Assembly (NCBI GenBank): GCA_041661865.1
Contig: JBAZTO010000004.1
Coordinates: forward strand, 614-64,613
Direction of reading: 5' to 3'
DNA length: 64,000 nt
Origin: Phycisphaerae bacterium
GTDB lineage: Bacteria > Planctomycetota > Phycisphaerae > SM23-33
Shown: positions 4,797-63,158 of the stretch, in pieces
How positions within the stretch are numbered: the first letter of the stretch is position 1
How the letters are laid out: the number at the start of each line of letters is the position of its first letter
Notes under the pieces: generated by a model
Told to the model about the DNA's origin: nothing
What the model saw: the letters and a program-made list of their open reading frames with translations, nothing else
Databases searched by the model: none
Translations under genes and position numbers: made by a program

Positions 4797-7589
4797 TTGC
4801 CCTCGCAGCGGCGGTGGCCTATGATCGCCGGCGTGAATACAGAGGGCAGCGAGCAACTCGATACCCCCGCGATGCGCCAGTACCGCGGCTTCAAGGAGCA
4901 GTACGGCGACTACCTTCTGCTGTTCCGCATGGGCGACTTCTATGAGATGTTCTACGAGGACGCCAAGACCGCCTCGCGCGTGCTGGGACTGACGCTGACT
5001 TCCCGCTCCAAGGGCCCCACGGCTGTGCCGCTGGCGGGCATTCCCTATCACGCCCTCGACGGCTATCTCGCCCGCATGGTCAAGGCCGGACTGAGGGTGG
5101 CCATCTGCGAACAGGTCGAAGACCCCAAGCAGGCCAGCGGCGTGGTGCGTCGCGACGTGACGCGCCTGGTCACCCCCGGCACGCTGACGGACCAGGCCCT
5201 GCTCGACCAGCGCGAGGGCAATTACCTTGCGGCGATTTTCGCGTTGGGTGGAGGGAAATCCCCCAGCAATGCTGGGGGCTTGAACAACCGCATGCCCTCG
5301 GCGTCGACGGAACAAACCCATGCTCTGAAGCCCCCGGCATCGTCGGGGGATTCTGGGAGCGTTTCGTCACGAATTGCCGGCCGCGATTCGCGCGCTGCCG
5401 AGCCGGCCGGACTGGCATGGGTGGAGCTTTCCAGCGGGACTTTCTGGGCGATGAAGCTCTCCAGCGAGCACCTGCTGGACGAGCTGGTCCGCATCGGCCC
5501 CTCGGAGGTGATCCTGGCTGAGGGCAGCAGCCTGGACGGTCCCACCTTCCGCGCCGCCCTGGGCCAGAGCACTTCCACCGCAGTCACCAGCCGCCCGCCG
5601 TGGGCCTTCGACGCCCGCGCCGCCACCGAGGCCCTCAATCAGCATTTCGGCACAGCCACGCTGGAGGGCTTTGGCTTTGACGGCTGGGATGAATCGCTCT
5701 CGGCGGCCGGGGCGGTCATCGAGTACCTCCGCGAGACGCAGAAAACCGCCCTGGGCCACATCCGTGCCCTGCGGCGTTTCGAGCGGGCCGACCACATGAT
5801 TATCGACGGCAACACGCTCCGCTGCCTGGAGGTCCACCGCACGCTTCGCACCGGCCAGCGGGCCGGCTCGCTGCTGGCCTGCATCGACTGCACCGCCACC
5901 GGCATGGGCGCGCGCCTGCTGGAGCGTTGGCTGACCTTCCCGCTCAACGGCTACAGCGCGATTTTAGCCCGCCAGGACGCCATCGAGGAACTGACCCTTG
6001 ACCGGCCGCGGCTGGGGGAGATCCGCGCGACCCTGGCGGAGATGGCCCAGGTGGACCGCATCGCCTCGGCCATCGCCCTGGCGCGCGTGCGCCCGCGCGA
6101 ACTGCTGGCCCTGGGCGACAGCCTGGCCCTGCTGCCCCGGCTGGCTGCTGCCGTCGCGCCCTGCCAGAGCGATCTCGTGGCGGCGTTGGCCCCCAGGTTG
6201 ACCGGGTTGGAAGAGCCCGCCGCCCGTATCGCCGCCGCCATCGACCGCGACTGCTCGCACGCCATCCGCGACGGCGGGGTCATCGCCAACGGCTTCCACG
6301 AGGAACTCGACCGCCTCCGCCGCATCGGCAGCGACGGGGCGAGCTGGCTGGCGGACTACCAGGCCGCCCAGGCGGCGCGGGTGGGAATCCCCAACCTCAA
6401 GGTCGGCTACAACCGCGTCTTCGGCTACTACATCGAGATCACCAACGCTCACGCCGCAAAGGTTCCCGGCGACTACGTCCGCAAGCAGACGCTCAAGAAC
6501 GCCGAGCGATACATCACCGACGATCTGAAGCGATACGAGTCGGAGGTGCTCTCCGCCGGCGAGCGGGCCAAGGCGCTGGAGGCCCAGCTTTTCGAGCAGC
6601 TCCGCAACGAGTTGTGCGCGCACATCCCGGCCCTGCAAGCCGCCGCCGAGGCCATCGCCACGCTGGACGTGCTGGCGGGGCTGGCGCAACTGGCCGTCGA
6701 ACGCGACTACCGCCGCCCGACCCTCACGCAGGACAACGTGCTGCACATCGTCGATGGGCGGCACCCGGGCCTGGCCCTCCAACTCCGCGAGCAGTTCGTG
6801 CCCAACGACGTCCACATGGACGCCAGGGACAACCGCCTGCTCATCATCACCGGACCCAACATGGCCGGCAAGAGCACCTACATCCGCCAGACCGCCTTGC
6901 TGACGCTGCTGGCCCAGATCGGTAGCTTCATCCCCGCCTCCGAGGCGACCATCGGCCTGGTGGACCGCATCTTCACCCGCGTGGGCGCCGCCGACGAACT
7001 GGCCCGCGGGCTGTCGACCTTCATGCTGGAGATGGTCGAGACGGCCAACATCCTCAACAACGCCACCTCGCGCTCGCTGGTGATTCTCGACGAGGTGGGG
7101 CGCGGCACCAGCACCACCGACGGCCTGGCCCTGGCCTGGGCCATCTGCGAGTACATCGCCCTCCACGCCCGCTGCCGCGCGCTGTTCGCCACCCACTACC
7201 ACGAACTGACCGAACTGGAGAGCCTGCTGGACGGCACGACCAACCTCAACGTGGCTGTCCGCGAATGGGCCGACGAGGTCATCTTCCTCCATAAGATCGT
7301 CCCCGGCGGCACCGACCGCAGCTACGGCGTCCACGTGGCCCGCCTGGCGGGAGTGCCCAAGGAAGTCATCGACCGCGCCCGCGCCATCCTGCCGCAGATC
7401 CAGGCCCACCTGGCCGAGGGGCTGGACATGCCGGCACTGGCGGAGCGGGCACGGGCTGCCGCCGCCCAGATGGAACTCTTCGCCGACCCCGCCACCCGCG
7501 TTGCACGCGAAATCAAGGCCGTCGATCTGGACAACCTGACCCCCCTGGCCGCCCTGGACCTCCTCCGCAAGCTCAAGTCAGATCTGTAA
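4797..7589 (+). CDS. mutS: DNA mismatch repair protein MutS
   Basis: 930-aa ORF; N-terminal mismatch-binding motif LLFRMGDFYEMF; Walker A GPNMAGKST; C-terminal HTH; alternative start at 4821. Confidence 0.95.
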   Translation: MPSQRRWPMIAGVNTEGSEQLDTPAMRQYRGFKEQYGDYLLLFRMGDFYEMFYEDAKTASRVLGLTLTSRSKGPTAVPLAGIPYHALDGYLARMVKAGLRVAICEQVEDPKQASGVVRRDVTRLVTPGTLTDQALLDQREGNYLAAIFALGGGKSPSNAGGLNNRMPSASTEQTHALKPPASSGDSGSVSSRIAGRDSRAAEPAGLAWVELSSGTFWAMKLSSEHLLDELVRIGPSEVILAEGSSLDGPTFRAALGQSTSTAVTSRPPWAFDARAATEALNQHFGTATLEGFGFDGWDESLSAAGAVIEYLRETQKTALGHIRALRRFERADHMIIDGNTLRCLEVHRTLRTGQRAGSLLACIDCTATGMGARLLERWLTFPLNGYSAILARQDAIEELTLDRPRLGEIRATLAEMAQVDRIASAIALARVRPRELLALGDSLALLPRLAAAVAPCQSDLVAALAPRLTGLEEPAARIAAAIDRDCSHAIRDGGVIANGFHEELDRLRRIGSDGASWLADYQAAQAARVGIPNLKVGYNRVFGYYIEITNAHAAKVPGDYVRKQTLKNAERYITDDLKRYESEVLSAGERAKALEAQLFEQLRNELCAHIPALQAAAEAIATLDVLAGLAQLAVERDYRRPTLTQDNVLHIVDGRHPGLALQLREQFVPNDVHMDARDNRLLIITGPNMAGKSTYIRQTALLTLLAQIGSFIPASEATIGLVDRIFTRVGAADELARGLSTFMLEMVETANILNNATSRSLVILDEVGRGTSTTDGLALAWAICEYIALHARCRALFATHYHELTELESLLDGTTNLNVAVREWADEVIFLHKIVPGGTDRSYGVHVARLAGVPKEVIDRARAILPQIQAHLAEGLDMPALAERARAAAAQMELFADPATRVAREIKAVDLDNLTPLAALDLLRKLKSDL

Positions 7590-7970
7590 CGGGCTTCGGA
7601 GGATGTTTTGACAGAGCCTATGACATAATACTTTGTAAATAAGAGTGTTATGTTTATGTTTCTTCTTGGGCACACGTTGCGTAACGTCAACATTCAAGCC
7701 CCCTAGGCCATGAATCAGGGAATTCCTGAGCCTCATTTCCAAGTCAGCCGCTGTGCGGCCGCCTTCCATGTTTCTCATATGCAACATGCCCACACATCCG
7801 GACCAGCTAGCCCGTGTTAATAATCGAGTTTTACGATTGTAACCACCTATAAAAAAATCACTTATAATGTGCTAAATCGCTTACATTTTTCCGCCGCTAT
7901 TGGCATTGTCGTTGCCTATAGTGGAATAGGGAAGTCACCGAGAAGGTCTACATAGTTGAGGGAGGCTGCC

Positions 7971-8246
7971 ATGAACGAGGCGGCGCTTAAGAAGAGGATC
8001 GATGAGTTGAACGAAGCCTTGGCCCATGCCCCGGTCGAGCCCGGAAAGCTCGCATCCGAGGATGTTTTGCTGCATTCATCCGGCAAAGGCAAGGAGAGTG
8101 TGGATGACCTTTTGGACTACCTGCGGTTGCAGGTGAAGTATCTGATGTTCGACCTGGAGGCCACCAAACGCGAGAACAGCTACCTTCGGCGGATGCTGGA
8201 AGCCCGGCAAAAGCCCGGCGACGACGGCGACGGATCCAAATGGTAG
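7971..8246 (+). CDS. small coiled-coil protein, hypothetical (91 aa)
   Basis: ATG 7971 preceded by GAGGGAGG SD; upstream 350-bp AT-rich region; downstream hairpin + T-tract terminator (8340-8383); coding-like GC3. Confidence 0.5.
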   Translation: MNEAALKKRIDELNEALAHAPVEPGKLASEDVLLHSSGKGKESVDDLLDYLRLQVKYLMFDLEATKRENSYLRRMLEARQKPGDDGDGSKW

Positions 8247-8339
8247 CCCAAGCACGATAGAGCAGTTGCCAGGAGCCCTTGGAGCGCTGCGCCCGAGCGA
8301 CCTGCCCGGTAGTGTTCGGACGCCAGCGCAGTTAGTGAG

Positions 8340-8383
8340 AGCACGGCCTCTTACTCCCCCCTGAGAGTGCCGTGCTTTTTTAT
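8340..8383 (+). terminator. rho-independent terminator of the small 7971-8246 gene
   Basis: stem AGCACGGC/GCCGTGCT followed by TTTTTTATTT. Confidence 0.5.
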
Positions 8384-8710
8384 TTCTTTGTCTTCGCGGG
8401 GGTTGCAGCCGGTGGCCAGAACACCTCAAGCCCGCTCCGTCAGGCAGTCGATAATCAAGTTGTTGGGATGATCGACGTGCGATGCCCCAACCTATGGTGT
8501 GTGGCCTCATTCCTGGGTGTGATGCGGTGCCGCCTAGGAAGGAGTGCGAGGCGACCGGAAAAGTTCAGAAAAACGTTCATGTTCGGCTTGACGTTCGGCC
8601 GATGTTAGGCTACCATGCGACAAACAAAGACCAAACAGTTATTGTCGGGCCTGCTCTCAAGGACGCTGAGCAAGGCAAAGAAATGCGGGCCTGTGCAGGG
8701 AGGTGGGATT

Positions 8711-9343
8711 ATGGCGACAGTGGCAGCGGCTTGCCAGTTCGGCCCCGGCGGCGACTTCGTCCGAACCTGGCCGAAGGGATCGCTGGCGCGGTGCGGTCAG
8801 GTGGCCATTGACCTGGTCAAGCTGGCGCGGTTCAGAGGCTTGGAATCGCCGGTGACCAGCTTTGGCCCGGCGGGGATCGCCTGGCAGCGCTCGGCCGTCG
8901 AAGGCGGCGCAACCGCTTCGCCGGTCTCAGCCGACGGAGTCCTGGCCAGCGGCGCGATGCCGGTCTCGGCCTTGAGCGTCCCCGGCAGGAAAGATACGAC
9001 ACTGCCCTCGCTGGAGTCGGTGACTTCCAGCCTGGCTAACCTGCTTGAGCCCGATCTGGCCAGGCAAAACTTCAAGGCCCCCAGCGGCCTGTACGTCTCC
9101 CAGGAGACGGCGGAGGAGCATGATGCGCACACAAGCTACTGTCACGCCGAGGCAACTGGAGATTCTTCGCTTCATCGGAGACTTTCGCAGGCAGAACGGC
9201 TTTTCCCCGACGATGCAGGAAATTGGCGACCACTTGCACCTGACGAAGGTCACCGCCTTCGAGCACGTCGAGGCCCTCGTCGAAAAGTCGCTGCTCATCC
9301 GTGGCCCCAAGCACAGGGCTCGCTCTTTACGGGTAGCCTCTGA
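8711..9343 (+). CDS. hypothetical Ala/Ser/Gly-rich protein with no stop codon before lexA (possible frameshifted gene/pseudogene)
   Basis: ATG 8711 with strong SD GGGAGGTGGG; high GC3 from 8711 to about 9120, then GC3 collapses where frame overlaps lexA (9120-9343); true 3' end unresolved. Confidence 0.25.
   Translation: MATVAAACQFGPGGDFVRTWPKGSLARCGQVAIDLVKLARFRGLESPVTSFGPAGIAWQRSAVEGGATASPVSADGVLASGAMPVSALSVPGRKDTTLPSLESVTSSLANLLEPDLARQNFKAPSGLYVSQETAEEHDAHTSYCHAEATGDSSLHRRLSQAERLFPDDAGNWRPLAPDEGHRLRARRGPRRKVAAHPWPQAQGSLFTGSL
9094..9109 (+). promoter_or_regulatory. inverted repeat CGTCTCC-CA-GGAGACG overlapping the lexA ribosome-binding region; candidate LexA autoregulatory operator
   Basis: Perfect 7-bp arms, 11-26 nt upstream of lexA ATG; motif identity for this phylum unknown. 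Confidence 0.3.
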
Positions 9344-9737
9344 TTTTGAGCTTCCCGACGAGCGGCCGACCAAGATGCCGCTGGTGGGCAAGGTCGCAGC
9401 CGGCCTGCCCATCGAGGCGATGGAGGACCGCCAGACCTTTGACATGGAAGAACTGTTCGAGGGCAGCGGCGAATCGTTCGTGCTCCAGGTGACCGGCAAC
9501 AGCATGATCGACGAGCACATCCAGAACGGCGACTACGTCATCTGCCGCCGCGGGCGCGAACCGCGAAATGGCGAGACGGTGGTGGCCCTGCTCGAAGAGG
9601 GCCAGGCCACGCTGAAGAAGTTCTACCGCGAGAAAGGCCGCATCCGCCTCCAGCCGGCCAACCCCGCCTTCAAACCCATCTACGCCCAGCAGGTGGACGT
9701 CCAGGGCGTCGTCGTCGGAGTGGTGAGGAAAGTCTGA
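9120..9737 (+). CDS. lexA: LexA repressor (SOS regulator, S24 peptidase)
   Basis: N-terminal winged HTH (TPRQLEILRFI...), Ala-Gly cleavage site VAAGLP, S24 catalytic Ser (GNSMID) and Lys (ATLKKF); start at MMRTQ; ORF track begins at 9045. Confidence 0.9.
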   Translation: MMRTQATVTPRQLEILRFIGDFRRQNGFSPTMQEIGDHLHLTKVTAFEHVEALVEKSLLIRGPKHRARSLRVASDFELPDERPTKMPLVGKVAAGLPIEAMEDRQTFDMEELFEGSGESFVLQVTGNSMIDEHIQNGDYVICRRGREPRNGETVVALLEEGQATLKKFYREKGRIRLQPANPAFKPIYAQQVDVQGVVVGVVRKV

Positions 9738-9740
9738 AGC

Positions 9741-9790
9741 CAATGACGAATGACGAAGTGCGAATGACGAATCAATGACGAAACGTCACG
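9741..9790. repeat. GAATGACGAA-family repeat arm (forward orientation) directly after lexA stop
   Basis: caatgacgaatgacgaagtgcgaatgacgaatcaatgacgaaacg; inverted partner at 11368-11420; complete IR copies at 30786-30909 and 34249-34380. Confidence 0.7.
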
Positions 9791-9977
9791 TGCCACATCC
9801 AAGCGAGGCAACGCGCAAGTTGGGGGTGTTCATCTTCGCCCCAAGCACACAACGCTTCTTGGGACGCCCAATCGAACATTTGCCCAGGCCACCTGCCGCC
9901 GTGCTGGCCGTGCATAACGACGGACCGGTTCTGGGCATGGAACTGCCATAGATACTGAACAAGAGGGGTGCAAAATC

Positions 9978-11168
9978 GTGAGATCAGAGAATGTAACGAT
10001 ATGGAAGAGAATACAGATCACCCTTCCTCACGCTTTTTGCATCGTGGTTCTGACGGCTACTGTCTTGCCCGCGCTTCATACTGTCGCCGGTTGGCTGCCC
10101 CAAGGTGTAGATGAAGACGGCGATAGAATTGATCCTTCCGTTGCCGTGGCCTTCTTTTCGCTGATTTTTTCGGTTTTGGTCTATTGGTGGCTGATTAGTC
10201 GGCTGCGAAAAGACGCAAAGCAAATTCGCGACCTGCGAACAGCCATTCAAATTGTGGCGTGCGACCAGCATGTCGATTGGCAGTCAGTGCCAGACCTCGA
10301 CACTTACCGCGAATCCCGAAATTTGCCGTTGGCAATGGCACTCGAAACGGCTGGAATCATACGGCCCAAACTCGAACTCGACGAACGCGAACGAGTGATC
10401 GCGTCTTGGCGTGCTCAACTCGATGAACCAGATCACGTGCGGGCTGTCAAAGAGGCACTCGAACACGGTCCATACAGCGGCATGTACTGGTCCTTCCAGA
10501 TTGTCAGCAGCGAATTCCGTAAGCTCATTCATCGTGAAACGCGGGAGCGATTTCCAAGAGAGTGCTACTTTGCAGAGCTTCACATTCTAATAGCGTACCG
10601 CGCAAGCGTGTTCCGGAAAGTGGCGTTTGCTGAAATGGCCAAAGATGTCGGGAATCCTTGTCTTGCGACCTTGATACATGCCATTGCCGAAATGGTGGAC
10701 AAGCCAGGCAATCCAAAGGAGATTGAAGAATCGACGCGTCGCGAACTCAATGAAGCCTTTGCCAGAGAAATAGAGCTTGAGTTACTCGAAGACGAAATCA
10801 AGAACTACGTGAAACTCCACCTAGAAGAAGCTGTGGTTCGCTGGCTAGCGAGATACAAGGATGATGCGGGTACGGTGGCCATATTCGACCGTTGGAAGCG
10901 ACTTCGCGACGGAGTTTCCAAGATGGCCGAATACCTTGGGCAAGCTAGGGGTTTCGCCACCGAAAGGCACGACATGGAGATGAACCTAAAGATTGACCGA
11001 TACGAATGGCTCAAGAATATGCAGGTTGGCAATGGAGCCAGACCTCGGAGTATCACCTGGGAGATGTACGAGGCGGCTAATAGGGGACTTGCCGCCTTCG
11101 CCAAGAGCGAGGCTGCTTTACCGGTCGACGAACCGAACAAGCCGACGTTGCCGCAAGAGCAGGATTAG
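9978..11168 (+). CDS. hypothetical membrane-anchored protein (low-GC cargo gene downstream of lexA)
   Basis: GTG start with AAGAGGGG SD; two N-terminal TM helices then about 300-aa soluble acidic/helical domain; GC clearly lower than neighbours; no recognisable family. Confidence 0.6.
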   Translation: MRSENVTIWKRIQITLPHAFCIVVLTATVLPALHTVAGWLPQGVDEDGDRIDPSVAVAFFSLIFSVLVYWWLISRLRKDAKQIRDLRTAIQIVACDQHVDWQSVPDLDTYRESRNLPLAMALETAGIIRPKLELDERERVIASWRAQLDEPDHVRAVKEALEHGPYSGMYWSFQIVSSEFRKLIHRETRERFPRECYFAELHILIAYRASVFRKVAFAEMAKDVGNPCLATLIHAIAEMVDKPGNPKEIEESTRRELNEAFAREIELELLEDEIKNYVKLHLEEAVVRWLARYKDDAGTVAIFDRWKRLRDGVSKMAEYLGQARGFATERHDMEMNLKIDRYEWLKNMQVGNGARPRSITWEMYEAANRGLAAFAKSEAALPVDEPNKPTLPQEQD

Positions 11169-11169
11169 T

Positions 11170-11420
11170 CCGTTTGCGGAAGGGCATGTTGATCGTGATG
11201 CCGTGGGCGGGTGCCGTGGTCGCGGCGTTTGCGACCACGAGCAGAAACGACGATACCCGCTCGCTTCGCGCTCGCGGCTAGTGCGCCAAGGCGCGGGCCT
11301 TGGTGCCTGCCTGCCGGTAGGCAGGTTGCGCGCCCTACATTCCGCTTAGTTCGTCCCCGCTGTCTTGGTCATTTGTGCTTCGTCATTGATTTGTCATTCG
11401 AGTTTCGTCATTCGTCATTC
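11170..11420. repeat. mosaic cluster of REP-like modules (BIME-like)
   Basis: Contains GGGTGCCGTGGTCGCGGCGTTTGCGACCACG (11210-11240, identical 31-mer at 56963), right half of CTAGCCGCGAGCGC element (11265-11295), CTGCCKGTAGGCAGGTTGCRCGCCCT module (11315-11345, also at 36519-36547) and inverted GAATGACGAA arm (11368-11420). Confidence 0.7.
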
Positions 11421-12277
11421 AAGACGGCGAGTCTTTCCGCCGTACGTTCGATCATCGTCACGCTGACGCGGGGGTGGCCCAGTTGGACGGCGGGCTTGCC
11501 CAGGCCGTGGAAGTCCGAGCCGCCGCTGGGCAGCAGGTTCAGCTTTGTCGCCAGCTCCAGGCACAGCCGCGTCTGCTGCGGCGAGTGATCGGGATGGTAC
11601 ACCTCGATGCCGTCCAGGCCCGCATGGGCCAGATCCCGCAGGACTCGCTCCAGTTGGAGGCGGTTGGCGCAGCGCAGTTGCGAGGGGTGGGCCAGCATCG
11701 CGATCCCGCCGCCGCCGTGAATGGCGTCGATCACCTGTCTCGGCCGCCAGCGATCCTTGGGCACAGCCGCCGGCCCGCCGTCGCCGAGGTAACGGTCGAA
11801 GGCCTCGGCAGGGCAGCGGACATGCCCCTTGGCCGCCAGGGTCTGGGCGATGTGCAGGCGTCCCAGGATTCGTTGGTCGCCGCCGCCGGCCTGGGCCAGC
11901 ACGTCGGCCAGGTCGATCGCCAGTCCCAGCGCCTGGAGCTTGGCGATGATCCTGGGGTTTCGCCCAGCCCGCGCCGCCTGCATCTCCCGCGTCAAGGCCT
12001 GCAGGCTCGGGGCATTCTCATCGATGCCCAAGCCAAGGATGTGCATGGTCCCGCCGGCAAAGGCGGCTGAGACCTCGATGCCGCTGACCAGGCGAAGCTG
12101 GGGAAACTCCGCCGCCGCCTGGCGCGCGGGGGCCAGTCCCTCGGTGGTGTCGTGGTCGGTCAGCGCGATAACGGCCAGCCCCGCGGCGTCGGCCTCGGCC
12201 AGCAGACGCTGGGGGCTGACCGAGCCGTCGGAGGCGGTGCTGTGGGTATGCAGATCGACCCAGCGACGGGCGCTCAT
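11408..12277 (-). CDS. PHP-domain metal-dependent phosphoesterase (TrpH/YciV-like)
   Basis: [12 protein letters not shown]-terminal PHP motif; start ATG overlaps cysK stop as ATGA (12274-12277); last codons and stop codon lie inside the GAATGACGAA repeat arm. Confidence 0.8.
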
Positions 12278-16335: not shown

Positions 16336-16351
16336 CAGGTATCTCGACGCA

Positions 16352-16429
16352 CTAGCCGCGAGCGCAAAGCGAGCGGACTATTTCCTCTTCTGAACCGACA
16401 ATCCCCGCTCGCTTTGCGCTCGCGGCTAG
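16352..16429. repeat. 78-bp inverted-repeat element CTAGCCGCGAGCGCAAAGCGAGCGG - loop - CCGCTCGCTTTGCGCTCGCGGCTAG, 17 nt after prfB stop
   Basis: perfect 25-bp arms, loop ACTATTTCCTCTTCTGAACCGACAATCC; second full copy 21712-21779 after trpB; partial copies at 11265-11295 and 62836-62862. Confidence 0.7.
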
Positions 16430-16545
16430 TGCGTCAATGGCGGGCGATGCGGTGTGCGCGATCAAGAACCAGCGAGCCGTCTGAGGGGCTTGGGATCGCA
16501 TTGATGCGTTGACCCTGTCGGAATGTGCGGTTAAGCTGGCCGGCC

Positions 16546-19932: not shown

Positions 19933-19952
19933 CGCCGCTCTCCAAACAGAAT

Positions 19953-20065
19953 CACCAAGACCACAGAGAGCACAAAGATCACAAAGCACGCCAAATCAGG
20001 AACAGAAAGGCTGAGGTTCGTGCGGTTGCCTTTCTTTGAGGTCTTTGTGGCCTTCGTGGTTGTTC
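19953..20065. repeat. 9-bp-periodic inverted-repeat element (CACRRAGNN)x4 / spacer / (NNCTYYGTG)x3
   Basis: caccaagac cacagagag cacaaagat cacaaagca ... gtctttgtggccttcgtggttg; spacer contains AAAGGC/GCCTTT hairpin; lies in divergent NRDE/trpB promoter region. Confidence 0.65.
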
Positions 20066-21605: not shown

Positions 21606-21711
21606 TTGAACAACAGTGCGAAGTGCGTGGTGCGTAGTGCGAAGAACAACAACAGTGCGAAGTGCGTGGTGCGAAGAACAGCGGCGCCGCGCCAAGACGA
21701 ACTAGCCGCGA

Positions 21712-21779
21712 GCGCAAAGCGAGCGGATTATTTCCTCTTTTGAAACGACCACACCCGCTCGCTTTGCGCTCGCGGCTAG
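21712..21779. repeat. second full copy of the CTAGCCGCGAGCGCAAAGCGAGCGG inverted-repeat element, downstream of trpB
   Basis: same 25-bp arms and similar loop (ATTATTTCCTCTTTTGAAACGACCACAC); preceded by 24-bp direct repeat caacagtgcgaagtgcgtggtgcg x2 (21611-21671). Confidence 0.7.
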
Positions 21780-21863
21780 TTTGCCTTGGCACAGATCATG
21801 GTCGCAAACGCCGCGGGCCAGGGCACTCAGCCCTCTTCCCGGCTACTGACCACAGACTACCGG

Positions 21864-23937: not shown

Positions 23938-24099
23938 AAAGCACGGAGAACACGGAGACCGCAGAGAGCACGGAGCAAACCATCGTCGAGAAAAAGAAAC
24001 ACCCCGCGAAAGGCGGGGTGCTGGATTGCTCTTTGGGTCTTGTTCAGACTCTTGGACTGTTCTCTGTGGCCTTTGTGTTCTCTGTGATCTTTGTGATGG
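23938..24099. repeat. 9-bp-periodic inverted-repeat element flanking the rpoD terminator
   Basis: cacggagaa cacggagac cgcagagag cacggagca [spacer with terminator] ctgttctctgtggcctttgtgttctctgtgatctttgtgatgg. Confidence 0.65.
23986..24020 (-). terminator. rho-independent terminator of rpoD
   Basis: hairpin CACCCCGC-GAAAG-GCGGGGTG followed on minus strand by TTTCTTTTTCTC. Confidence 0.6.
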
Positions 24100-27715: not shown

Positions 27716-27935
27716 ATCACAGAGGGCACGGAGATCACAAAGATCACGGAGAATGGCAAACAGGGAAAGCACGAAGCCAAGGTACGACGAATCGTGCAAA
27801 GGTCAGGAACCGGACACTGCAAAGCCACCAGGCTCGTTGTTCTTTTTTCTGGTTTTTTCTGGCTTTCCGATAGGCACTATTCTCTCTTCAGCTTCTCTTT
27901 GTGATCTCTGTGTCCTTCGTGAGCTTTGTGATAGC
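27716..27935. repeat. 9-bp-periodic inverted-repeat element between dnaG start and rnhA end
   Basis: cacagaggg cacggagat cacaaagat cacggagaa [130-bp spacer with T-rich run] ctctttgtgatctctgtgtccttcgtgagctttgtgatagc. Confidence 0.65.
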
Positions 27936-30785: not shown

Positions 30786-30909
30786 ACAATGACGAATGAC
30801 GAAATGCAAATGACGAATCAATACTCGAATGCTCGAATATCCCAAACAGAATCCCGTGGACCCTGTTGGGTTATTCGTCATTGACTCGTCATTCGAGTTT
30901 CGTCATTTG
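30786..30909. repeat. complete about 125-bp inverted-repeat element of the GAATGACGAA family between gfo and mnmE
   Basis: acaatgacgaatgacgaaatgcaaatgacgaatcaatactcgaatgctcgaatat [central cccaaacagaatcccgtggaccctgttggg] ttattcgtcattgactcgtcattcgagtttcgtcatttg. Confidence 0.7.
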
Positions 30910-32712: not shown

Positions 32713-32745
32713 TCCGAATTGCCGGCTGCCACATCAAATTGCGCC

Positions 32746-33354
32746 GTGGCCTGGCTGCTGATCCTGCCCCTGGGCGCGCTGGTCACCTCGATCATCCGCA
32801 ACGTCGTCGGTGTGCAGACCTATGGCACGCTGACGCCCAGCCTGCTGGCCATCAGCTTTCTCCAGGCCGATTGGCTCAGCGGCGGGCTCGTCTTTGGCCT
32901 GGTGATGGGCCTGGGCCTCGGCGGCCGGGCGTTGCTGGGCAGGCTCAAGCTCCTGATGGGCCCGCGCCTGGGCCTGGTGCTGACCTTCGTCGTGCTGGGC
33001 CTGGCCGGTGCGCTGAACCTGGCCGGCCGGCGCGGTTACCATACCGACCCGGCGGCCCTCATCCTGCCGCTGGTGGTGCTGACGATGATCGTCGAGCGTT
33101 TCTATATTTCCATCGAGGAAAACGGCCTGGGCCTCTCGCTGCGGCTGCTGGCGGGCACGCTGGGCGTCGGCGCCCTGTGCCTGGCCCTGCTGCGGTGGCG
33201 ATGGCTGGGACAATTGGCTGTGAGCTATCCCGAGGCGCAGCTCTTCGTGGCCGCGGCGCTGGTCTGCGTGGGCCGCTACAGCGGCTACCGGCTGACCGAG
33301 CTGTGGCGATTCCGCGAACTGGCTGCGCCGAAGCAACTGGGAGAAGACCGGTGA
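32746..33354 (+). CDS. polytopic membrane protein (6-7 TM) partnered with the ATP-grasp ligase
   Basis: ORF track starts at 32527 but 32527-32745 is occupied by REP hairpins; in-frame GTG at 32746 (VAWLLILPLG...) is the preferred start; stop overlaps next gene as GTGA. Confidence 0.6.
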   Translation: MAWLLILPLGALVTSIIRNVVGVQTYGTLTPSLLAISFLQADWLSGGLVFGLVMGLGLGGRALLGRLKLLMGPRLGLVLTFVVLGLAGALNLAGRRGYHTDPAALILPLVVLTMIVERFYISIEENGLGLSLRLLAGTLGVGALCLALLRWRWLGQLAVSYPEAQLFVAAALVCVGRYSGYRLTELWRFRELAAPKQLGEDR

Positions 33355-34289
33355 GCGCGCCCGCGCGTAACGGCTGGCTGCCCGCCTGGCCGGGGCATCT
33401 GCGGCGGGCTGGCGTGCTGGGCATGAACGCCCGCAACACCCAACTGCTCGTGGCGCTGAACCCCAGGCGGCTCTACGACCTGGTCAACGACAAGATCCAG
33501 ACCAAGGAACTGTGCCTCCGCGAGGCGATCCCCACGCCGCGAACCTACGCGATCCTCGACCACCCCGCGCAGGTGCCCGCGGCGGCGGAGATCATGCGGC
33601 AGGCCGGCCAGTTCGTGGTCAAGCCCTCGCGCGGCAGCGGGGGCCGCGGTGTGCTGGTCATCGCCGGCAGCGAAGAGGGCGACTTCCGCACCTCCAGCGG
33701 CGTCGCGATGAGCTGGGACGAGATGCGGTACCACCTGCTGATGACGCTGGCCGGCGCGTTCTCCATCGGCGGCCGGGCCGACCGCGTGATCATCGAGCAG
33801 CGCGTCAGCCGCCACGCCGCCTTTGAAGGCCTGGCCGTCAACGGCACGCCGGATGTGCGACTGATCGTCTATCGTGGCAGCGCCATCATGGGCATGCTTC
33901 GCCTGCCGACGCTGGCCTCGGGCGGCCGGGCCAACCTCCACCAGGGCGCGCTGGGGCTGGGCCTGGACATCGCCACGGGCGTGTCCACCGGCGGCTTCTG
34001 CCGCGACCGCAGCGTGGAAGTTCATCCCGACACCGGGGCGGCCCTGACCGGCGTGGCTGTGCCGCGATGGAAGGAAATGCTGGCCGTGTCGGAGAAACTG
34101 TCAGCCGCGGTGGGCCTGGGCTACCTGGGCGTGGACATCGTGCTGGGCGAGGAGGGCCCGCTGGTCCTGGAGGCCAACGGCCGGCCGGGACTGTCCATCC
34201 AGATCGCCAACCGCTGCGGATTGATGACGCGGATCGCCGAAGCCGAGAATCGAATGACGAATGACGAAACTCGAATGATAAATCAATGA
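33351..34289 (+). CDS. ATP-grasp alpha-L-glutamate ligase-like protein (RimK-related)
   Basis: ATP-grasp motifs VVKPSRGSGGRGV, LGYLGVDIVL, LEANGRPG; GTG start overlapping upstream stop; last 13 codons ([13 protein letters not shown]) are encoded by the GAATGACGAA repeat arm. Confidence 0.8.
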   Translation: MSAPARNGWLPAWPGHLRRAGVLGMNARNTQLLVALNPRRLYDLVNDKIQTKELCLREAIPTPRTYAILDHPAQVPAAAEIMRQAGQFVVKPSRGSGGRGVLVIAGSEEGDFRTSSGVAMSWDEMRYHLLMTLAGAFSIGGRADRVIIEQRVSRHAAFEGLAVNGTPDVRLIVYRGSAIMGMLRLPTLASGGRANLHQGALGLGLDIATGVSTGGFCRDRSVEVHPDTGAALTGVAVPRWKEMLAVSEKLSAAVGLGYLGVDIVLGEEGPLVLEANGRPGLSIQIANRCGLMTRIAEAENRMTNDETRMINQ

Positions 34290-34380
34290 CGAATAACCCC
34301 ATACGTTTCGCGTGTTTCTGTTTGGGGCATTCGAGCATTCGAGTATTGATTCGTCATTCGAGTTTCGTCATTCGTCATTA
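34249..34380. repeat. complete inverted-repeat element of the GAATGACGAA family overlapping the 3' end of the ATP-grasp gene
   Basis: atcgaatgacgaatgacgaaactcgaatgataaatcaatgacgaataacc ... cattcgagcattcgagtattgattcgtcattcgagtttcgtcattcgtcatta. Confidence 0.7.
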
Positions 34381-36426: not shown

Positions 36427-36575
36427 AAGGCGTGCAACGAGTCTGCCACGGCGGCCAGGGTTCTGCACGCGGAAGAAACAATTCCCCGCGTGCAACGAGT
36501 TGCACGCCCTACTACCAACTGCCTGTAGGCAGGTTGCACGCCCTGCCAATTTCGCACTTCGCACTTTCGCACTGC
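36427..36575. repeat. cluster of REP modules inverted relative to 35253-35313
   Basis: aaggcgtgcaac[insert]gcacgcggaag; cgcgtgcaacgagttgcacgccctac; ctgcctgtaggcaggttgcacgccctgcc; aatttcgcacttcgcactttcgcactgc. Confidence 0.6.
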
Positions 36576-38868: not shown

Positions 38869-38908
38869 GATCAATCTGCAATCTGCAATTGGCAATCTTC
38901 AATCTACA
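38869..38908. repeat. tandem heptamers CAATCTG x5 in the promoter region of the FAD-oxidoreductase gene
   Basis: gatCAATCTGCAATCTGCAATTGGCAATCTTCAATCTACagg; coordinates +/-2 nt. Confidence 0.45.
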
Positions 38909-49550: not shown

Positions 49551-50870
49551 ATGGAAACTGGCGAAAGAACTGAACTGTCGGTGCAGGCCGAGAAGGCCCT
49601 GCTCGTGACGGTCATGCTGCCGGGTTCGACGGCTGACCCCATGGACCCGGTGGGGGAACTGCGGAGTCTGGTCAAGACGGCAGGGGCGGCGGTGGTTGAC
49701 GAGATGCTCGTCAGGCGCCAGGCGGTAAGTCCCTGCCTTTACGTCGGTTCGGGCAAGGCCGAAGAGATTGCCAACCGCGCCGACATGAACGAAGCCAACG
49801 TGGTGATCTTCGACAACGACCTGTCCCCCGGTCAAATCCGCGAGCTTGAGACCATCGTTCGCCGCAAGGTGATCGACCGCAGCGAGCTGATCCTGGATAT
49901 CTTCGCCGCCCACGCCCGCACGGCAGAGAGCAGCCTCCAGGTCGAATTGGCCCAACTGGAATACACCTATCCACGCCTGACGCACATGTGGAGCCACCTG
50001 GAGCGCATGGCCGGCGGCGCCGCCGGCGCGGGCCAGAGCGGCGGCGTCGGCACGCGCGGCCCGGGCGAGAAGCAGATCGAAATCGACCGCCGCCTGGTCC
50101 AGAAGCGCGTCAGCTCGCTCAAACGCCAGATCGCCGAGATCGACCAGCGGAAGATGCGCCAGGTCAGGAGCCGACAGGAAACCTTCGGCGCCTGCCTGGT
50201 CGGCTACACCAACGCCGGCAAGAGCACGCTGATGAACCTGCTGACCGGCGCGGACACCTACGTGGCCGACAAGCTCTTTGCCACGCTGGACACCAAGACG
50301 CGGCGCTGGGACCTGGGCGAGGGGCAGTCGGTGCTGTTGTCGGACACCGTCGGTTTCGTCCGCGACCTGCCGCACCACCTGGTGGCCAGCTTCCGCGCCA
50401 CGCTGGAAGAGGCCATCAACGCCCAACTGCTCATCCACGTCGCCGACGCCTCGCACGACCGCGTCGAGCAGCAGATCCGCGCCGTCGAGGGCGTGCTGGA
50501 TGAACTCCATTGCGACCGCCAGCGCGTCCTGCTGGTGCTCAACAAGATCGACCGCATCAACGACCCGACCGTCCGCACGATCCTGGCCGGCAAGTATCCG
50601 CGAGCGATGTTTGTCTCTGCCGCCACCGGGGCGGGGGCCGCGGAATTGGCTGCCCAGGTCGCCCTTCGCTCCGCCGGCGCGCCCGTCCGCGTGACGCTCA
50701 AGGCCAACTGCGCCAATGGCCGGCTCATGCAGTACATCGCCCAGCACGCCCAGGTGCTCAGCCAGAGCTTCAGCGACTCCACCGCGCTGATCGAGGCCAC
50801 CATTCCCGCCAAACGCCTCGCGCAACTGACGACCTTCGGCAACGACGTGGAGATCCTCGTGAGGTCGTAG
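49551..50870 (+). CDS. hflX: GTPase HflX
   Basis: HflX N-terminal domain, G-domain GYTNAGKSTLMNLLT, DTVGF, NKID. Confidence 0.92.
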   Translation: METGERTELSVQAEKALLVTVMLPGSTADPMDPVGELRSLVKTAGAAVVDEMLVRRQAVSPCLYVGSGKAEEIANRADMNEANVVIFDNDLSPGQIRELETIVRRKVIDRSELILDIFAAHARTAESSLQVELAQLEYTYPRLTHMWSHLERMAGGAAGAGQSGGVGTRGPGEKQIEIDRRLVQKRVSSLKRQIAEIDQRKMRQVRSRQETFGACLVGYTNAGKSTLMNLLTGADTYVADKLFATLDTKTRRWDLGEGQSVLLSDTVGFVRDLPHHLVASFRATLEEAINAQLLIHVADASHDRVEQQIRAVEGVLDELHCDRQRVLLVLNKIDRINDPTVRTILAGKYPRAMFVSAATGAGAAELAAQVALRSAGAPVRVTLKANCANGRLMQYIAQHAQVLSQSFSDSTALIEATIPAKRLAQLTTFGNDVEILVRS

Positions 50871-50885
50871 GCTGATGAAAAAAGC

Positions 50886-50913
50886 TTGGCAAACGACGAA
50901 GTTGCCCTATAAT
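50886..50913 (+). promoter_or_regulatory. near-consensus sigma-70 promoter TTGGCA-N16-TATAAT driving the low-GC two-gene module
   Basis: aagcTTGGCAaacgacgaagttgcccTATAATacg, about 90 nt upstream of ATG 51006. Confidence 0.55.
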
Positions 50914-51005
50914 ACGAAAGGGTAGGTAGGTGTTCGTCAACAAATAGGCCGGTTTTCCCTCGGTGTTCGGCCCGAGTTTGCCGATGACAAAAAGGGAAAA
51001 GAGCG

Positions 51006-51479
51006 ATGATGGACCCGATCAAGGACAAGCCGAGAACAATCCAACTCGACTATTATAGCGAGCATGAGTGTAAGGTTGTGGTCAAGCCGAAGGACCATGA
51101 CGTATTCATGGACAGTCTCCAGAATGTGACTACCGCTTGTCAACTTGGGAACAAGAGCATAAAGTTTTTTGAGCAATTTCGTCTGCTCCTGCAGAAGTTA
51201 GCACAGTGGTTGAGTCAGCGGCGCGGCCTTGCGCGGCACGCCTATATCACACTCAAAGAAGGTGGGTTTCTATTCATCGTGGTCAGATTGACTGCTGAGT
51301 ACAACCGTCAGTTTGAAGACGATTTGACGAAGCTGGACATCGAAGTGGCAACTGATCCCGAACTGGATTTGGTGAACTTGGAGGTTCTGGCGCTCCCCAA
51401 CGGTTCCACGGACTCACTAAGATCGTTTCTTGATCCTGATACCACTATGGAGTTTTCTCCGCGTGCCGAGCAAGACTGA
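51006..51479 (+). CDS. hypothetical protein (gene 1 of low-GC two-gene module)
   Basis: 157-aa, GC about 47% versus about 65% in flanks; no family recognised. Confidence 0.5.
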   Translation: MMDPIKDKPRTIQLDYYSEHECKVVVKPKDHDVFMDSLQNVTTACQLGNKSIKFFEQFRLLLQKLAQWLSQRRGLARHAYITLKEGGFLFIVVRLTAEYNRQFEDDLTKLDIEVATDPELDLVNLEVLALPNGSTDSLRSFLDPDTTMEFSPRAEQD

Positions 51480-51888
51480 CCACCTTACGCTGGCTCAGCA
51501 CAATCAGGACACCATCGAGTTTCTCGGGGCATCGCACTCTGACTTTTCAGACTGGGTGGCAACCATTGCCTTTTACCGGGCGCTGCACCTAGTAGAATCG
51601 CTCTTCTATCAAGATCCGTCGATCGTGCATGGGTGTGACCATAAGACAAGAGAAGCAATTCTGAAAAGACGTTACAGTATGATTTATGTGCATTACAGGC
51701 CGTTGAAGTCAGCATCGATGATTGCGAGATACCTGATGGATAGTGGTGGCACCGCATACAGGAGATTCAGTGACTACCTCAAGCCGACGGAGGTAAAGAG
51801 CGAACTCTTGGAGTTTCGGCTGAAGGAACTCGAAAAACTCGTGCAAATGCTCCTAGTTGTTAAGCCATCTGGTAGCACCGGTGTCTAA
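51463..51888 (+). CDS. hypothetical protein, possible HEPN-like (gene 2 of low-GC module)
   Basis: overlaps gene 1 by 17 nt in another frame (GTG 51463; ORF track starts TTG 51430); contains R-x6-H-Y stretch (RYSMIYVHY) loosely resembling HEPN Rx4-6H motif. Confidence 0.45.
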   Translation: MPSKTDHLTLAQHNQDTIEFLGASHSDFSDWVATIAFYRALHLVESLFYQDPSIVHGCDHKTREAILKRRYSMIYVHYRPLKSASMIARYLMDSGGTAYRRFSDYLKPTEVKSELLEFRLKELEKLVQMLLVVKPSGSTGV

Positions 51889-52139
51889 CGCAGTCGTGCT
51901 GCATCGCCATCTCCGCCGCGGAAGCCACTCACCCGCCACCAGCAGGGGGAAGTTGTACAAGCCGGCAAGGATCCTGCTAGCACGCCCGGCCGATCACGCC
52001 CTGGAACCGGAAGGACAGGTCGTTCATCTACCGCCAGAACGCGCATGCCGCGCGGGCATTTTGCAGGCTCGGCCATGTCGTCGCGGCGGGGGCGGCGATA
52101 TAATCGCCCGTGCGTGGCGCATCCTTAAAGGAACCCTTC

Positions 52140-53191: not shown

Positions 53192-53212
53192 ACGCCCCCT
53201 TAGAGGGGGCGT
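53192..53212 (+). terminator. GC hairpin after trpD (no clear U-tract)
   Basis: ACGCCCCC-ttaga-GGGGGCGT. Confidence 0.4.
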
Positions 53213-53322
53213 CGGCCCAGAGATCCTATCCCTGGGGGGGTTCTTCAATGAATTATATCGGAGCCCGCGAGGCAAGAAACAAGAAAAAAGAAGAAAAAGC
53301 GAACCCCAGGGAATAACACTAA

Positions 53323-53973
53323 ACCATACAAAGAGTTATCGCGTACATTGACGGGTTTAACTTGTACTTCGGCCTACGCGAAAACAAGTGGCGAAGGTAT
53401 TACTGGCTCAACTTATGGGCCTTGGTACTCAGTCTACTGAAGCCTGACCAGAAGCTCGTCCTCACGAAGTATTTTACTGCCCGAATCGCTGGTGCTCGGC
53501 AAGGGGATCCTCCGATGCTAGCGCGTGAACTCGATGCCAAAGTCAAGCGGCAAGGCCTGTTTCTGGATGCCCTGAGTACTCTGCGAAACTTACAAGTCTT
53601 TGAAGGACACTATCTTGGGAAAACCGTGGAATGCTTCCGCTGTGGGGGGACGTGGCGAACCCACGAAGAAAAGATGACAGATGTGAACATCGCCACCGAG
53701 ATCTTGACGGATGCATTCAATGATCACTTTGACACGGCGATTCTGATCTCCGGGGATAGCGATCTTGTTCCTCCAGTACTGGCCGTAAGGCAGTATTTTC
53801 CCGGGAAGAAGATTGTTGCGGCCTTCCCACCGTCACGGACCTCCGAACAATTGAAGCGAGCGGTCAATGCCTATTTCGTCATCGGTGAAGCGAAGCTTCG
53901 GCAAAGTCAGTTCCCGGATTACGTCAAGAAATCAGATGGTTTCACTCTTGTTAGGCCACAGGAATGGCGATAG
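53323..53973 (+). CDS. NYN-domain (PIN-like nuclease fold) protein
   Basis: Frame opens at 53323 (stop at 53320); translation ..RVIAYIDGFNLYFGLR matches NYN N-terminal motif; no ATG/GTG before TTG 53362, so start codon is non-canonical or unresolved; low GC. Confidence 0.65.
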   Translation, partial: TIQRVIAYIDGFNLYFGLRENKWRRYYWLNLWALVLSLLKPDQKLVLTKYFTARIAGARQGDPPMLARELDAKVKRQGLFLDALSTLRNLQVFEGHYLGKTVECFRCGGTWRTHEEKMTDVNIATEILTDAFNDHFDTAILISGDSDLVPPVLAVRQYFPGKKIVAAFPPSRTSEQLKRAVNAYFVIGEAKLRQSQFPDYVKKSDGFTLVRPQEWR

Positions 53974-56908: not shown

Positions 56909-56962
56909 GCATCCGTGCCCCCAGGACGCGACCAAGACCAGGTTCTAGCCTGGCGCAAGGGC

Positions 56963-62972: not shown

Positions 62973-63017
62973 CTGGAACCCTATCGGCGATTGTTTGTAG
63001 TCTTACGGCCTTACACC

Positions 63018-63158
63018 CACAGGCGAGACGCCTGTGCTACCACACTCACAGGCGAGACGCCTGTGCTACCACACTCACAGGCGAGACGCCTGTGCTACCA
63101 CACTCACAGGCGAGACGCCTGTGCTACCACACTCACAGGCGAGACGCCTGTGCTACCC
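63018..63158. repeat. tandem array of five 29-bp units CACAGGCGAGACGCCTGTGCTACCACACT (no spacers)
   Basis: exact 29-nt period at 63018, 63047, 63076, 63105, 63134 (last unit truncated); each unit contains the CACAGGCG-AGA-CGCCTGTG palindrome. Confidence 0.8.

Follow-up and report, generated by a model that had tools for sequence, protein, structure and literature searches.

A 64,000-nt stretch of the genome of a Phycisphaerae bacterium (contig JBAZTO010000004.1, hereafter the window) contains, between lexA and the gene for a PHP-domain phosphoesterase (the PHP gene), a low-GC gene bracketed by inverted repeat arms. We call this gene orf396 (9978-11168, + strand), after its product of 396 amino acids (aa). 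Comparison with related Phycisphaerae supports the conclusion that orf396 is an insertion at a recurrent insertion hotspot between lexA and the PHP gene, because the site is empty in one relative and other relatives hold unrelated cargo within the same conserved frame. Overall, the object is an ordinary strain-specific islet in a repeat-rich hotspot, carrying an uncharacterised and very rare gene.

The closest LexA proteins are 70-77% identical and come from metagenome-assembled genomes of Phycisphaerae or Planctomycetota. The frame of a rightward lexA facing a leftward PHP gene is kept in several of these relatives (five retain it), and its content differs each time. In L142, whose LexA is 74% identical, the site is empty: lexA is followed by 72 nt of hairpins resembling repetitive extragenic palindromes (REPs), and then by the PHP gene. 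An earlier note on this DNA, made from the sequence alone, had proposed that finding lexA directly followed by the PHP gene in relatives would mark an insertion, and the 72-nt spacer of L142 is such a case. The other sites are filled. L003 has a low-GC YaaC-like gene on the opposite strand, followed by the PHP gene; L141 has a gene for an OLD-family nuclease (8729-10708; PADLOC Old 1e-44, AriA 4e-40), a REP cluster and the 3' end of the PHP gene; and the PHP gene is preceded by two unknown genes in L143 and by three genes (unknown, SprT-like and leucine-rich repeat) in L014. A gene with a SocA_Panacea domain (8783-9340) follows lexA in L144, on a contig where no PHP gene was called. The cargo in relatives is often on the strand opposite lexA, and apart from the nuclease and the Panacea-domain protein, which are of a defence or toxin-antitoxin type, it is unknown or not defence-related. 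We found no tRNA or integrase gene at the lexA/PHP site. orf396 itself was absent from the lexA locus of every relative examined, so that the observation named in the earlier note as speaking against an insertion, the same gene with native GC content at the lexA loci of relatives, did not arise.

The inserted gene and its family

No other low-GC tract in the window is as long as the region of orf396. Its GC content is 0.52 overall and 0.56 at third codon positions (GC3), compared with GC3 values of 0.77-0.90 in lexA, the PHP gene, cysK and other neighbours, and judged by these values its composition is foreign. The gene starts with GTG, with AAGAGGGG located 8 nt upstream, and is preceded by a 193-nt leader (9785-9977, + strand; GC 0.585). 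We take it to be a real gene because it has a 56%-identical homologue, a 269-aa metagenomic protein that aligns across residues 21-268, and because it recurs unchanged in an independent assembly: Logan assembly L140 matches window positions 7189-11234 at 100%, and the same 396-aa product is called there. This contig, from the same organism, was the only match to orf396 together with its leader. The organism also occurs in SRR18595301.

At its N-terminus the product carries two transmembrane helices; these precede a conserved, helical domain (about 190 aa) and a C-terminal tail that varies. A short acidic loop separates the hydrophobic segments (approximately residues 12-40 and 50-76), and a basic stretch comes after them. 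By the positive-inside rule, this suggests an N-terminal membrane hairpin, with the all-helical part of about 320 aa in the cytoplasm. Searches with orf396 found no family in Pfam (E ≤ 0.1) or NCBIfam (E ≤ 0.001), none in PADLOC at E ≤ 1 and no match in PHROGs. A profile search of the PDB was also negative, as was a Foldseek search of the PDB at E ≤ 0.001 with an AlphaFold2 model (pLDDT 54.7, from an alignment of four sequences). The description in the earlier note of a 396-aa, membrane-anchored protein of unknown family and low GC content, for which it had recommended profile searches and structure prediction, thus holds. We rejected a prophage or plasmid origin of orf396, since tblastn against phages and plasmids gave no matches.

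The family is very rare. An exhaustive HMMER search of 1.84 billion representative proteins found four clusters, and a word-indexed search of 5.8 billion returned orf396 itself and one homologue only. Members share the N-terminal part of about 270 aa and differ at their C-termini: P0002 has no additional domain, P0003 has ankyrin repeats and orf396 ends in a helical tail of 125 aa. A distant member with 25% identity (L138:10001-11188) carries C-terminal ankyrin repeats, which shows that the conserved N-terminal membrane module has been combined with different C-terminal domains. P0002 is encoded in a context unrelated to lexA, adjoined by genes for a SLFN_AlbA_2/HATPase_c_4 protein and a ParA-like ATPase; a neighbour has weak matches to pAgo-associated models, and no repeat arms were found around this homologue. 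No upstream or promoter sequence was conserved between orf396 and the L001 homologue. By hhalign, the family is unrelated to the cargo tested from relatives (the YaaC-like protein and the 225-aa and 216-aa proteins of L143 and L144). Our best guess is that the product of orf396 is an accessory, dispensable membrane effector of a stress or defence type, because cargo at or next to the site elsewhere includes the OLD-family nuclease and the antitoxin-like Panacea-domain protein.

The repeat arms and the origin of the bracket

The stop codon of lexA (TGA) occupies 9735-9737, and repeat units of the GAATGACGAA type begin at 9741, as the earlier note had described. The left arm (9741-9784, + strand, 44 nt) contains four such units within 9741-9782, of which two are exact and two have one mismatch, and is a type-1 arm (...TCAATGACGAA; see below). 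It had been described as a 50-bp arm of tandem units; a repeat arm is indeed present, but the units overlap or are spaced and so are not strictly tandem. The right arm (11365-11420, - strand, 56 nt) is also type-1 when read inward, and reaches approximately 11365-11368 by way of degenerate units detected by Tandem Repeats Finder. The two arms, 1.6 kb apart on the lexA side and the PHP side, are inverted with respect to each other, as had been noted: the longest ungapped inverted match pairs 9742-9782 with 11379-11419 (41 nt, 90% complementary), so that in form they are terminal inverted repeats. The GAATGACGAA decamer (≤1 mismatch) has 23 copies in the window compared with 3.2 ± 1.7 in shuffled sequence, and none of 100 shuffles reached 23. 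Twenty of these 23 matches fall into four clusters (9741-9782, 11379-11420, 30787-30908 and 34252-34380). On its own, neither arm is structured (z = -0.26 for the left arm). Together they form a duplex of -62.7 kcal/mol (shuffles, -21.7 ± 4.3), and they are paired in the minimum free energy fold of 9700-11450.

Between orf396 and the right arm lies a mosaic of three REP families (11205-11336; GC 0.72), namely X (11205-11239), Y (11244-11285) and Z (about 11305-11336). Other copies of the mosaic families occur in the window at 56959, 63226, 21701-21780, 16348-16433, 62844 and 36519. Families X and Z are also present in the relatives L143, L014 and L141, and by this distribution at least these two are native to this Phycisphaerae clade. 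The PHP gene (11408-12277, - strand; Pfam PHP, TrpH/YciV-like) is the last gene of a leftward cysK-PHP operon, in which its ATG overlaps the cysK stop codon. Its best NCBIfam matches, 3',5'-nucleoside bisphosphate phosphatase (8e-58) and RNase RNM (6e-53), are both under the curated cutoffs. The reading frame ends at 11408, inside the right arm, whose outer 13 nt encode the last three residues (N-D-E) and supply the stop codon, in line with the earlier description of a REP cluster that closes with the inverted arm and ends the PHP gene. The C-terminus that results matches those of relatives in length (...RLAVLNDE* compared with ...RLLGPIR*).

Two intact copies of the element to which the arms belong are found elsewhere in the window. 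Copy A (30786-30909), a compact palindromic element, has the GFO_IDH_MocA and MnmE genes on its two sides; copy B (34249-34380), also compact and inverted relative to A, lies between the ATPgrasp_ST and TauE genes, and the open reading frame (ORF) upstream of it (32739-34289) ends within its left arm. Copy A folds at -50.4 kcal/mol (z = -6.8) and copy B at -63.1 kcal/mol (z = -9.4), each into a long hairpin. Alignment of the arms places both copies in the same family as the lexA/PHP arms, as had been claimed, and the family is thus dispersed over three loci in the window. The six arms share about 40 nt, after which (...TCAAT) the sequence continues as either type-1 (GACGAA...) or type-2 (ACTCGAATGCTCGAAT...). 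Copies A and B each combine one type-1 with one type-2 arm, whereas both arms of the lexA/PHP pair are type-1.

We found the 16-nt core of the arms, AATGACGAATGACGAA, in at least 120 stretches of metagenome DNA, whose GC contents are 0.39-0.68, and arm-pair statistics were taken from 120 loci. These contained 69 facing arm pairs (gap median 38 nt, 90th percentile 104 nt, maximum 1048 nt) and 55 internal solo arms. From the median gap, the compact hairpin is the usual form, like copies A and B; the 1.6-kb separation at lexA/PHP exceeds the range seen in these loci. Among the wider pairs, L065 holds nested repeats of another family and L035 holds REP mosaics. Rfam has no family matching the arm region even at E ≤ 1 (the only match in the window was a tRNA-Leu), and we found no paper with the arm motif in the literature searched; the papers on REPs and on miniature transposable elements with inverted repeats (MITEs), and those on short tandemly repeated repetitive (STRR) sequences and PF05635, contain no description of the repeat.

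Some observations on related repeats concern relatives of the window. L142 has the same gene order as the window (GFO_IDH_MocA, MnmE, ..., ATPgrasp_ST, TauE). Its MnmE junction (L142:5112-5172, 61 nt) contains one TTCGTCATTC unit in place of the full copy A of the window, and at its TauE junction (L142:1673-1909) there is a palindrome of about 190 nt made of different units (GAAATCCGAAATACGAAGCACGAAATTCGAAAC). Compared with copies A and B, these junctions suggest in-place growth, decay or unit turnover of the hairpins. Directly after the lexA stop codon of L143 (8631-8679) lies a compact palindrome of TGACCAA/TTGGTCA-type units, similar in style to the window arms.

How did the bracket arise? 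We consider it fairly probable that a foreign segment was inserted into a pre-existing arm-bounded repeat structure. The interval 9741-11420 is the spacer between the ends of two convergent operons (upstream ORF and lexA rightward, cysK-PHP leftward). Hairpin-forming repeats fill such spacers in this clade, in this case the outer GAATGACGAA-unit arms and the three native REP families. In this model, a segment of about 1.4 kb (approximately 9785-11200) carrying a single gene would have entered the spacer, and the arms would be the remains of a compact palindromic element, or of an arm-bounded repeat mosaic, pried apart by the insertion rather than the ends of a vehicle. The native REPs inside, together with the unique foreign gene, fit a spacer in which insertions become nested over time, foreign DNA being one of them. 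We favour this insertion over arrival of the bracket as a composite vehicle and over coincidence, both of which seem improbable to us. Several points weigh against it. The two type-1 arms do not correspond to a simple split of a canonical copy, although the arm-type rule itself comes from the two intact copies; solo arms are common in the metagenome loci, so the two arms could have come independently; and we found no lexA/PHP allele that holds a compact element. As to the nature of the cargo, the defence-type guess rests on same-site neighbours in other genomes, orf396 itself being without a PADLOC match.

An origin as a composite mobile cassette, in which the arms would be the terminal inverted repeats of a MITE-like or intervening sequence (IVS)-like element and orf396 the cargo that came with them as a unit, is unlikely in our view, even though it has a parallel. 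In L127 (2977-3538), L064 (699-1257) and L147 (10004-10585), the same arm sequence brackets an ORF for a four-helix-bundle protein (PF05635, the 23S-IVS protein), and the arms of L127 and L064 align unit for unit with those of the window. Homologues of this ORF that are 70-90% identical number in the thousands; among the best 120, 108 start with MNDEARMTNDEGMTK..., some have read-through C-termini, and both ends of the protein are translated arms. We found no description of this link between arms and PF05635 in the literature searched. The model would also account for the arms abutting both flanking genes exactly, and the lack of GAATGACGAA arms in seven relatives (10-20 kb sampled from each, about 100 kb in total) is suggestive of patchy or mobile spread. 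However, the three inspected cassettes all lie at one orthologous site, between mlaE and the mla ATPase gene (mlaF), and on that evidence are one ancient insertion in a widespread lineage and not proof of mobility. The four-helix-bundle protein is the sole ORF type found between such arms elsewhere and is not a transposase. Neither the bracket nor the rest of the window contains a gene or remnant of this kind: 120 family members used as tblastn queries matched arm-encoded ends only, orf396 has no Pfam match, and a remnant inside the bracket was therefore rejected. Of the 69 facing pairs, L120 (weak arms with two units each) is the only other one that may enclose a gene for something other than a four-helix-bundle protein.

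Further evidence from the locus itself disfavours arrival in one piece, namely the clade-native REPs inside the bracket, the identical type of the two arms and the want of a convincing target-site duplication. The sole candidate for such a duplication, which the earlier note had suggested looking for at 9741 and 11420, is AAG, flanking the arms on both outer sides; this is 3 nt long, a duplication of fixed length was not found, and copies A and B have none. Moreover, no second copy of the composite was found, P0002 lacks arms, the cargo of L003, L141, L143 and L014 is not flanked by inverted arms, and no transposase was identified among the part of the ORFs in the 64-kb window that was scanned against Pfam. 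The interior junction sequences did not match the loops of other elements. Of the earlier proposal that a cargo gene was captured between the two halves of a MITE-like element, the insertion and the shared repeat family therefore survive, and the mobile capture is doubtful. An integron cassette was rejected as well, as by inspection the arm ends (...CGTCATTC and GAATGACG...) have no GTTRRRY attC core and there is no intI among the ORFs scanned.

The abundance of solo arms (55, compared with 69 pairs) also bears on whether two independent arms might simply have come to lie on either side of a gene inserted between lexA and the PHP gene. This would fit the shared type of the arms and the general tendency of the family to colonise short spacers at gene ends. 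We nevertheless hold such a coincidence to be about as improbable as the cassette, since arms occur at only four sites in 64 kb and these two are complementary in register over their 41-nt match. By a rough estimate, the chance of two arms facing each other around the most compositionally foreign gene, and abutting conserved genes, is about 1 in 100 or less. Least probable of all is a chimeric join through the repeated arms during assembly. Arms and REPs are repeated, and L140 stops within REP-X at 11234, so that the right junction is present in one assembly only; but the left junction, from lexA through the arm to orf396, is identical in L140, the right arm overlaps a PHP reading frame of normal C-terminal length, and the arms are only about 45-55 nt long. 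We therefore return to insertion into an existing repeat structure as the reading that best accommodates the locus.

Possible expression from the lexA operon

lexA (9123-9737, + strand; 204 aa; Pfam Peptidase_S24 6e-30 and LexA_DNA_bind 1e-9) is the last gene of a rightward operon that it shares with a conserved upstream ORF. An identical 204-aa LexA (P0005) is encoded in an independent assembly. The operon has a sigma-70-type promoter (8588-8616, + strand; TTGACG-17-TACCAT) that is nearly invariant in an alignment of six genomes (window 8575-8640) and overlaps a candidate LexA operator. In five related loci this is the dyad TGTTAG-N13-CTAACA, present once in each (L003:9473-9497, L004:3509-3532, L141:7564-7588, L142:7507-7531 and L143:7421-7445), and the copy in the window is degenerate, with CAAACA as its right half and a spacing of 12. 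The dyad is a plausible candidate for the LexA operator of this Phycisphaerae clade. Naive enumeration of dyads upstream of lexA yielded GC-rich noise only and was rejected as a source of LexA boxes.

orf396 lies on the same strand as lexA and 240 nt downstream of it. No terminator-like site was found between the two genes, and 9738-9977 contains no candidate LexA operator, with the limit that the LexA box of the clade is itself inferred. Read-through from the lexA operon into orf396, and hence coupling to the SOS response, is plausible because there is no terminator-like site ahead of orf396 and the left arm cannot fold locally. A hairpin that ended the lexA transcript would no longer form locally after the insertion, orf396 would probably be transcribed at least in part by read-through from the operon promoter, and, as a by-product of the insertion, DNA damage could derepress it together with lexA. 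Pairing of the arms across 1.6 kb of a read-through transcript could yield a stem of about 40 bp, which RNase III might plausibly cleave.

The genes for known SOS division inhibitors frequently adjoin lexA, as do sulA in Pseudomonas, yneA in Bacillus and chiZ in Mycobacterium. The earlier note had speculated that orf396 encodes an SOS-induced inhibitor of growth or division analogous to SulA. The predicted membrane anchor, and the position of the gene on the lexA strand with no terminator-like site in between, would suit an analogue of SulA, YneA or ChiZ. We regard this as very doubtful, however, and do not retain the proposal. The gene is absent from the locus in all relatives examined, including the five that keep the frame, where cargo is often on the opposite strand, and its family comprises the four clusters described above. 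Its composition is foreign and no candidate LexA operator lies upstream. The protein, at 396 aa, far exceeds known inhibitors in size and shows no similarity to SulA or LysM-type inhibitors, nor any sequence or fold match in the PDB. A more elaborate scheme, which we would call a long shot, is that the GAATGACGAA-unit arms act as an RNA-level 'cassette holder' related to IVS elements. Rather than being passive debris, the arms would let any ORF that they enclose travel in a host transcript, here the LexA-controlled transcript of the lexA operon, and be released or stabilised by cleavage of the 40-bp stem, giving a damage-inducible new membrane-anchored effector (e.g., for growth arrest or abortive infection) in an FtsZ-less planctomycete.

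If the read-through model is true, the insertion destroyed the terminator hairpin of lexA and thereby brought a foreign gene under the SOS response, which would be a simple route for accessory genes to gain stress regulation. For annotation, the lexA/PHP spacer should be treated as a recurrent insertion hotspot in this Phycisphaerae group, and a mobile cassette should not be deduced from a pair of inverted repeat arms that flank a gene. The by-products of the analysis are a family of membrane proteins that is very rare (four clusters in 1.84 billion representatives) and modular at its C-terminus; a widespread repeat, apparently undescribed in the literature searched, that brackets genes for four-helix-bundle proteins and is translated into their ends; and a candidate LexA operator for the clade. 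To us the arm family with its four-helix-bundle link, the candidate operator and the hotspot are of more interest than the islet itself.

Other repeats in the window and comparison with known systems

The genome is rich in short-unit palindromic elements. Further palindromes or arrays whose arms consist of short tandem units lie at 347-419, 21691-21790, 23942-24086, 27717-27932, 19951-19986, 36551-36573 and 38872-38905. Their units are AAGTGCG, CACGGAGAA/ATCACAAAG and CAATCTG, and there is in addition a 36-nt REP-Y hairpin pair. At 63013-63157, a 29-nt unit (ACACTCACAGGCGAGACGCCTGTGCTACC), which includes a small palindrome, is repeated head to tail in five copies (99% matches); we rejected this array as CRISPR because it has no spacers. 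In the region upstream of a small conserved gene (7956-8246), corresponding to window 7660-7950, several TGTTGCC-N6-GGCAACA dyads are common to the relatives, as is a TGGCAC-N5-TTGC element resembling a sigma-54 promoter; the window has TTGGCATTGTCGTTGCC. Two other low-GC tracts (0.50-0.53) may be further islets: 50800-51900, with two ORFs lacking Pfam matches (51006-51479 and 51430-51888), and 53200-53970, with a gene for an NYN-domain protein (53362-53973).

In several respects the arm family behaves like REPs and their composites, bacterial interspersed mosaic elements (BIMEs) and REPINs: it is multi-copy, extragenic and hairpin-forming, sits at gene ends and between convergent genes, occurs in mosaics of families, and solo units are common. 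REPs tagged with GTAG or CGTC have stems of 5-13 bp (8-9 bp in CGTC families), and DNA inserted between the partners of a REP dimer is known (PMC3733652). Unlike these tagged 20-40-nt stem-loops, the arms described here are 40-55 nt long, are built of 7-10-nt GAATGAC(GAA) units and do not fold on themselves. No gene for a REP-associated tyrosine transposase (RAYT) was seen among the ORFs scanned in the 64-kb window.

Bacterial MITEs such as Correia, ERIC and RUP abut or overlap gene ends. The intact copies are like them in having terminal inverted repeats, a length of about 125-135 nt, long hairpins in the transcript and a patchy distribution, and in supplying stop codons to adjacent genes. 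They differ in lacking a consistent target-site duplication and an identified parent insertion sequence or transposase, and in their internally repetitive arms, and capture by a MITE is contradicted by the native REPs inside the bracket. Intervening sequences of 23S rRNA encode the S23p/four-helix-bundle protein PF05635, e.g., in Coxiella (PMC4990558). As in those elements, an ORF is bracketed here by inverted repeats able to form a long stem, and the same arm units bracket PF05635 genes in L127, L064 and L147. In contrast to them, the window element lies outside an rRNA gene and has no PF05635 ORF, and its arms are 1.6 kb apart rather than the roughly 0.5 kb of those three cassettes.

At the level of the repeat unit, the likeness is to the STRR sequences of cyanobacteria, reportedly described by Mazel et al. 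in 1990 as heptanucleotide repeats that often form facing hairpin arms in intergenic DNA, with TTGGTCA as STRR2. The tandem heptamers found here (TTCGTCA, TTTGTCA and TTGGTCA) include units one base from STRR2, although the phylum is different and STRR sequences are not known to bracket genes. With SulA, YneA, ChiZ and SidA, orf396 shares its place next to lexA, its strand and membrane anchoring, and differs in its lack of homology, much greater size, foreign composition, lack of conservation at the locus and lack of an operator. Defence islets carry variable accessory cargo at fixed hotspots between conserved core genes. Although the islet in the window consists of a single gene with no recognisable defence domain, and has no integrase or tRNA at the site, it resembles them in its conserved lexA/PHP frame, in the unrelated, low-GC and strain-specific cargo of that frame, which includes an OLD-family nuclease, and in the empty site of one relative.

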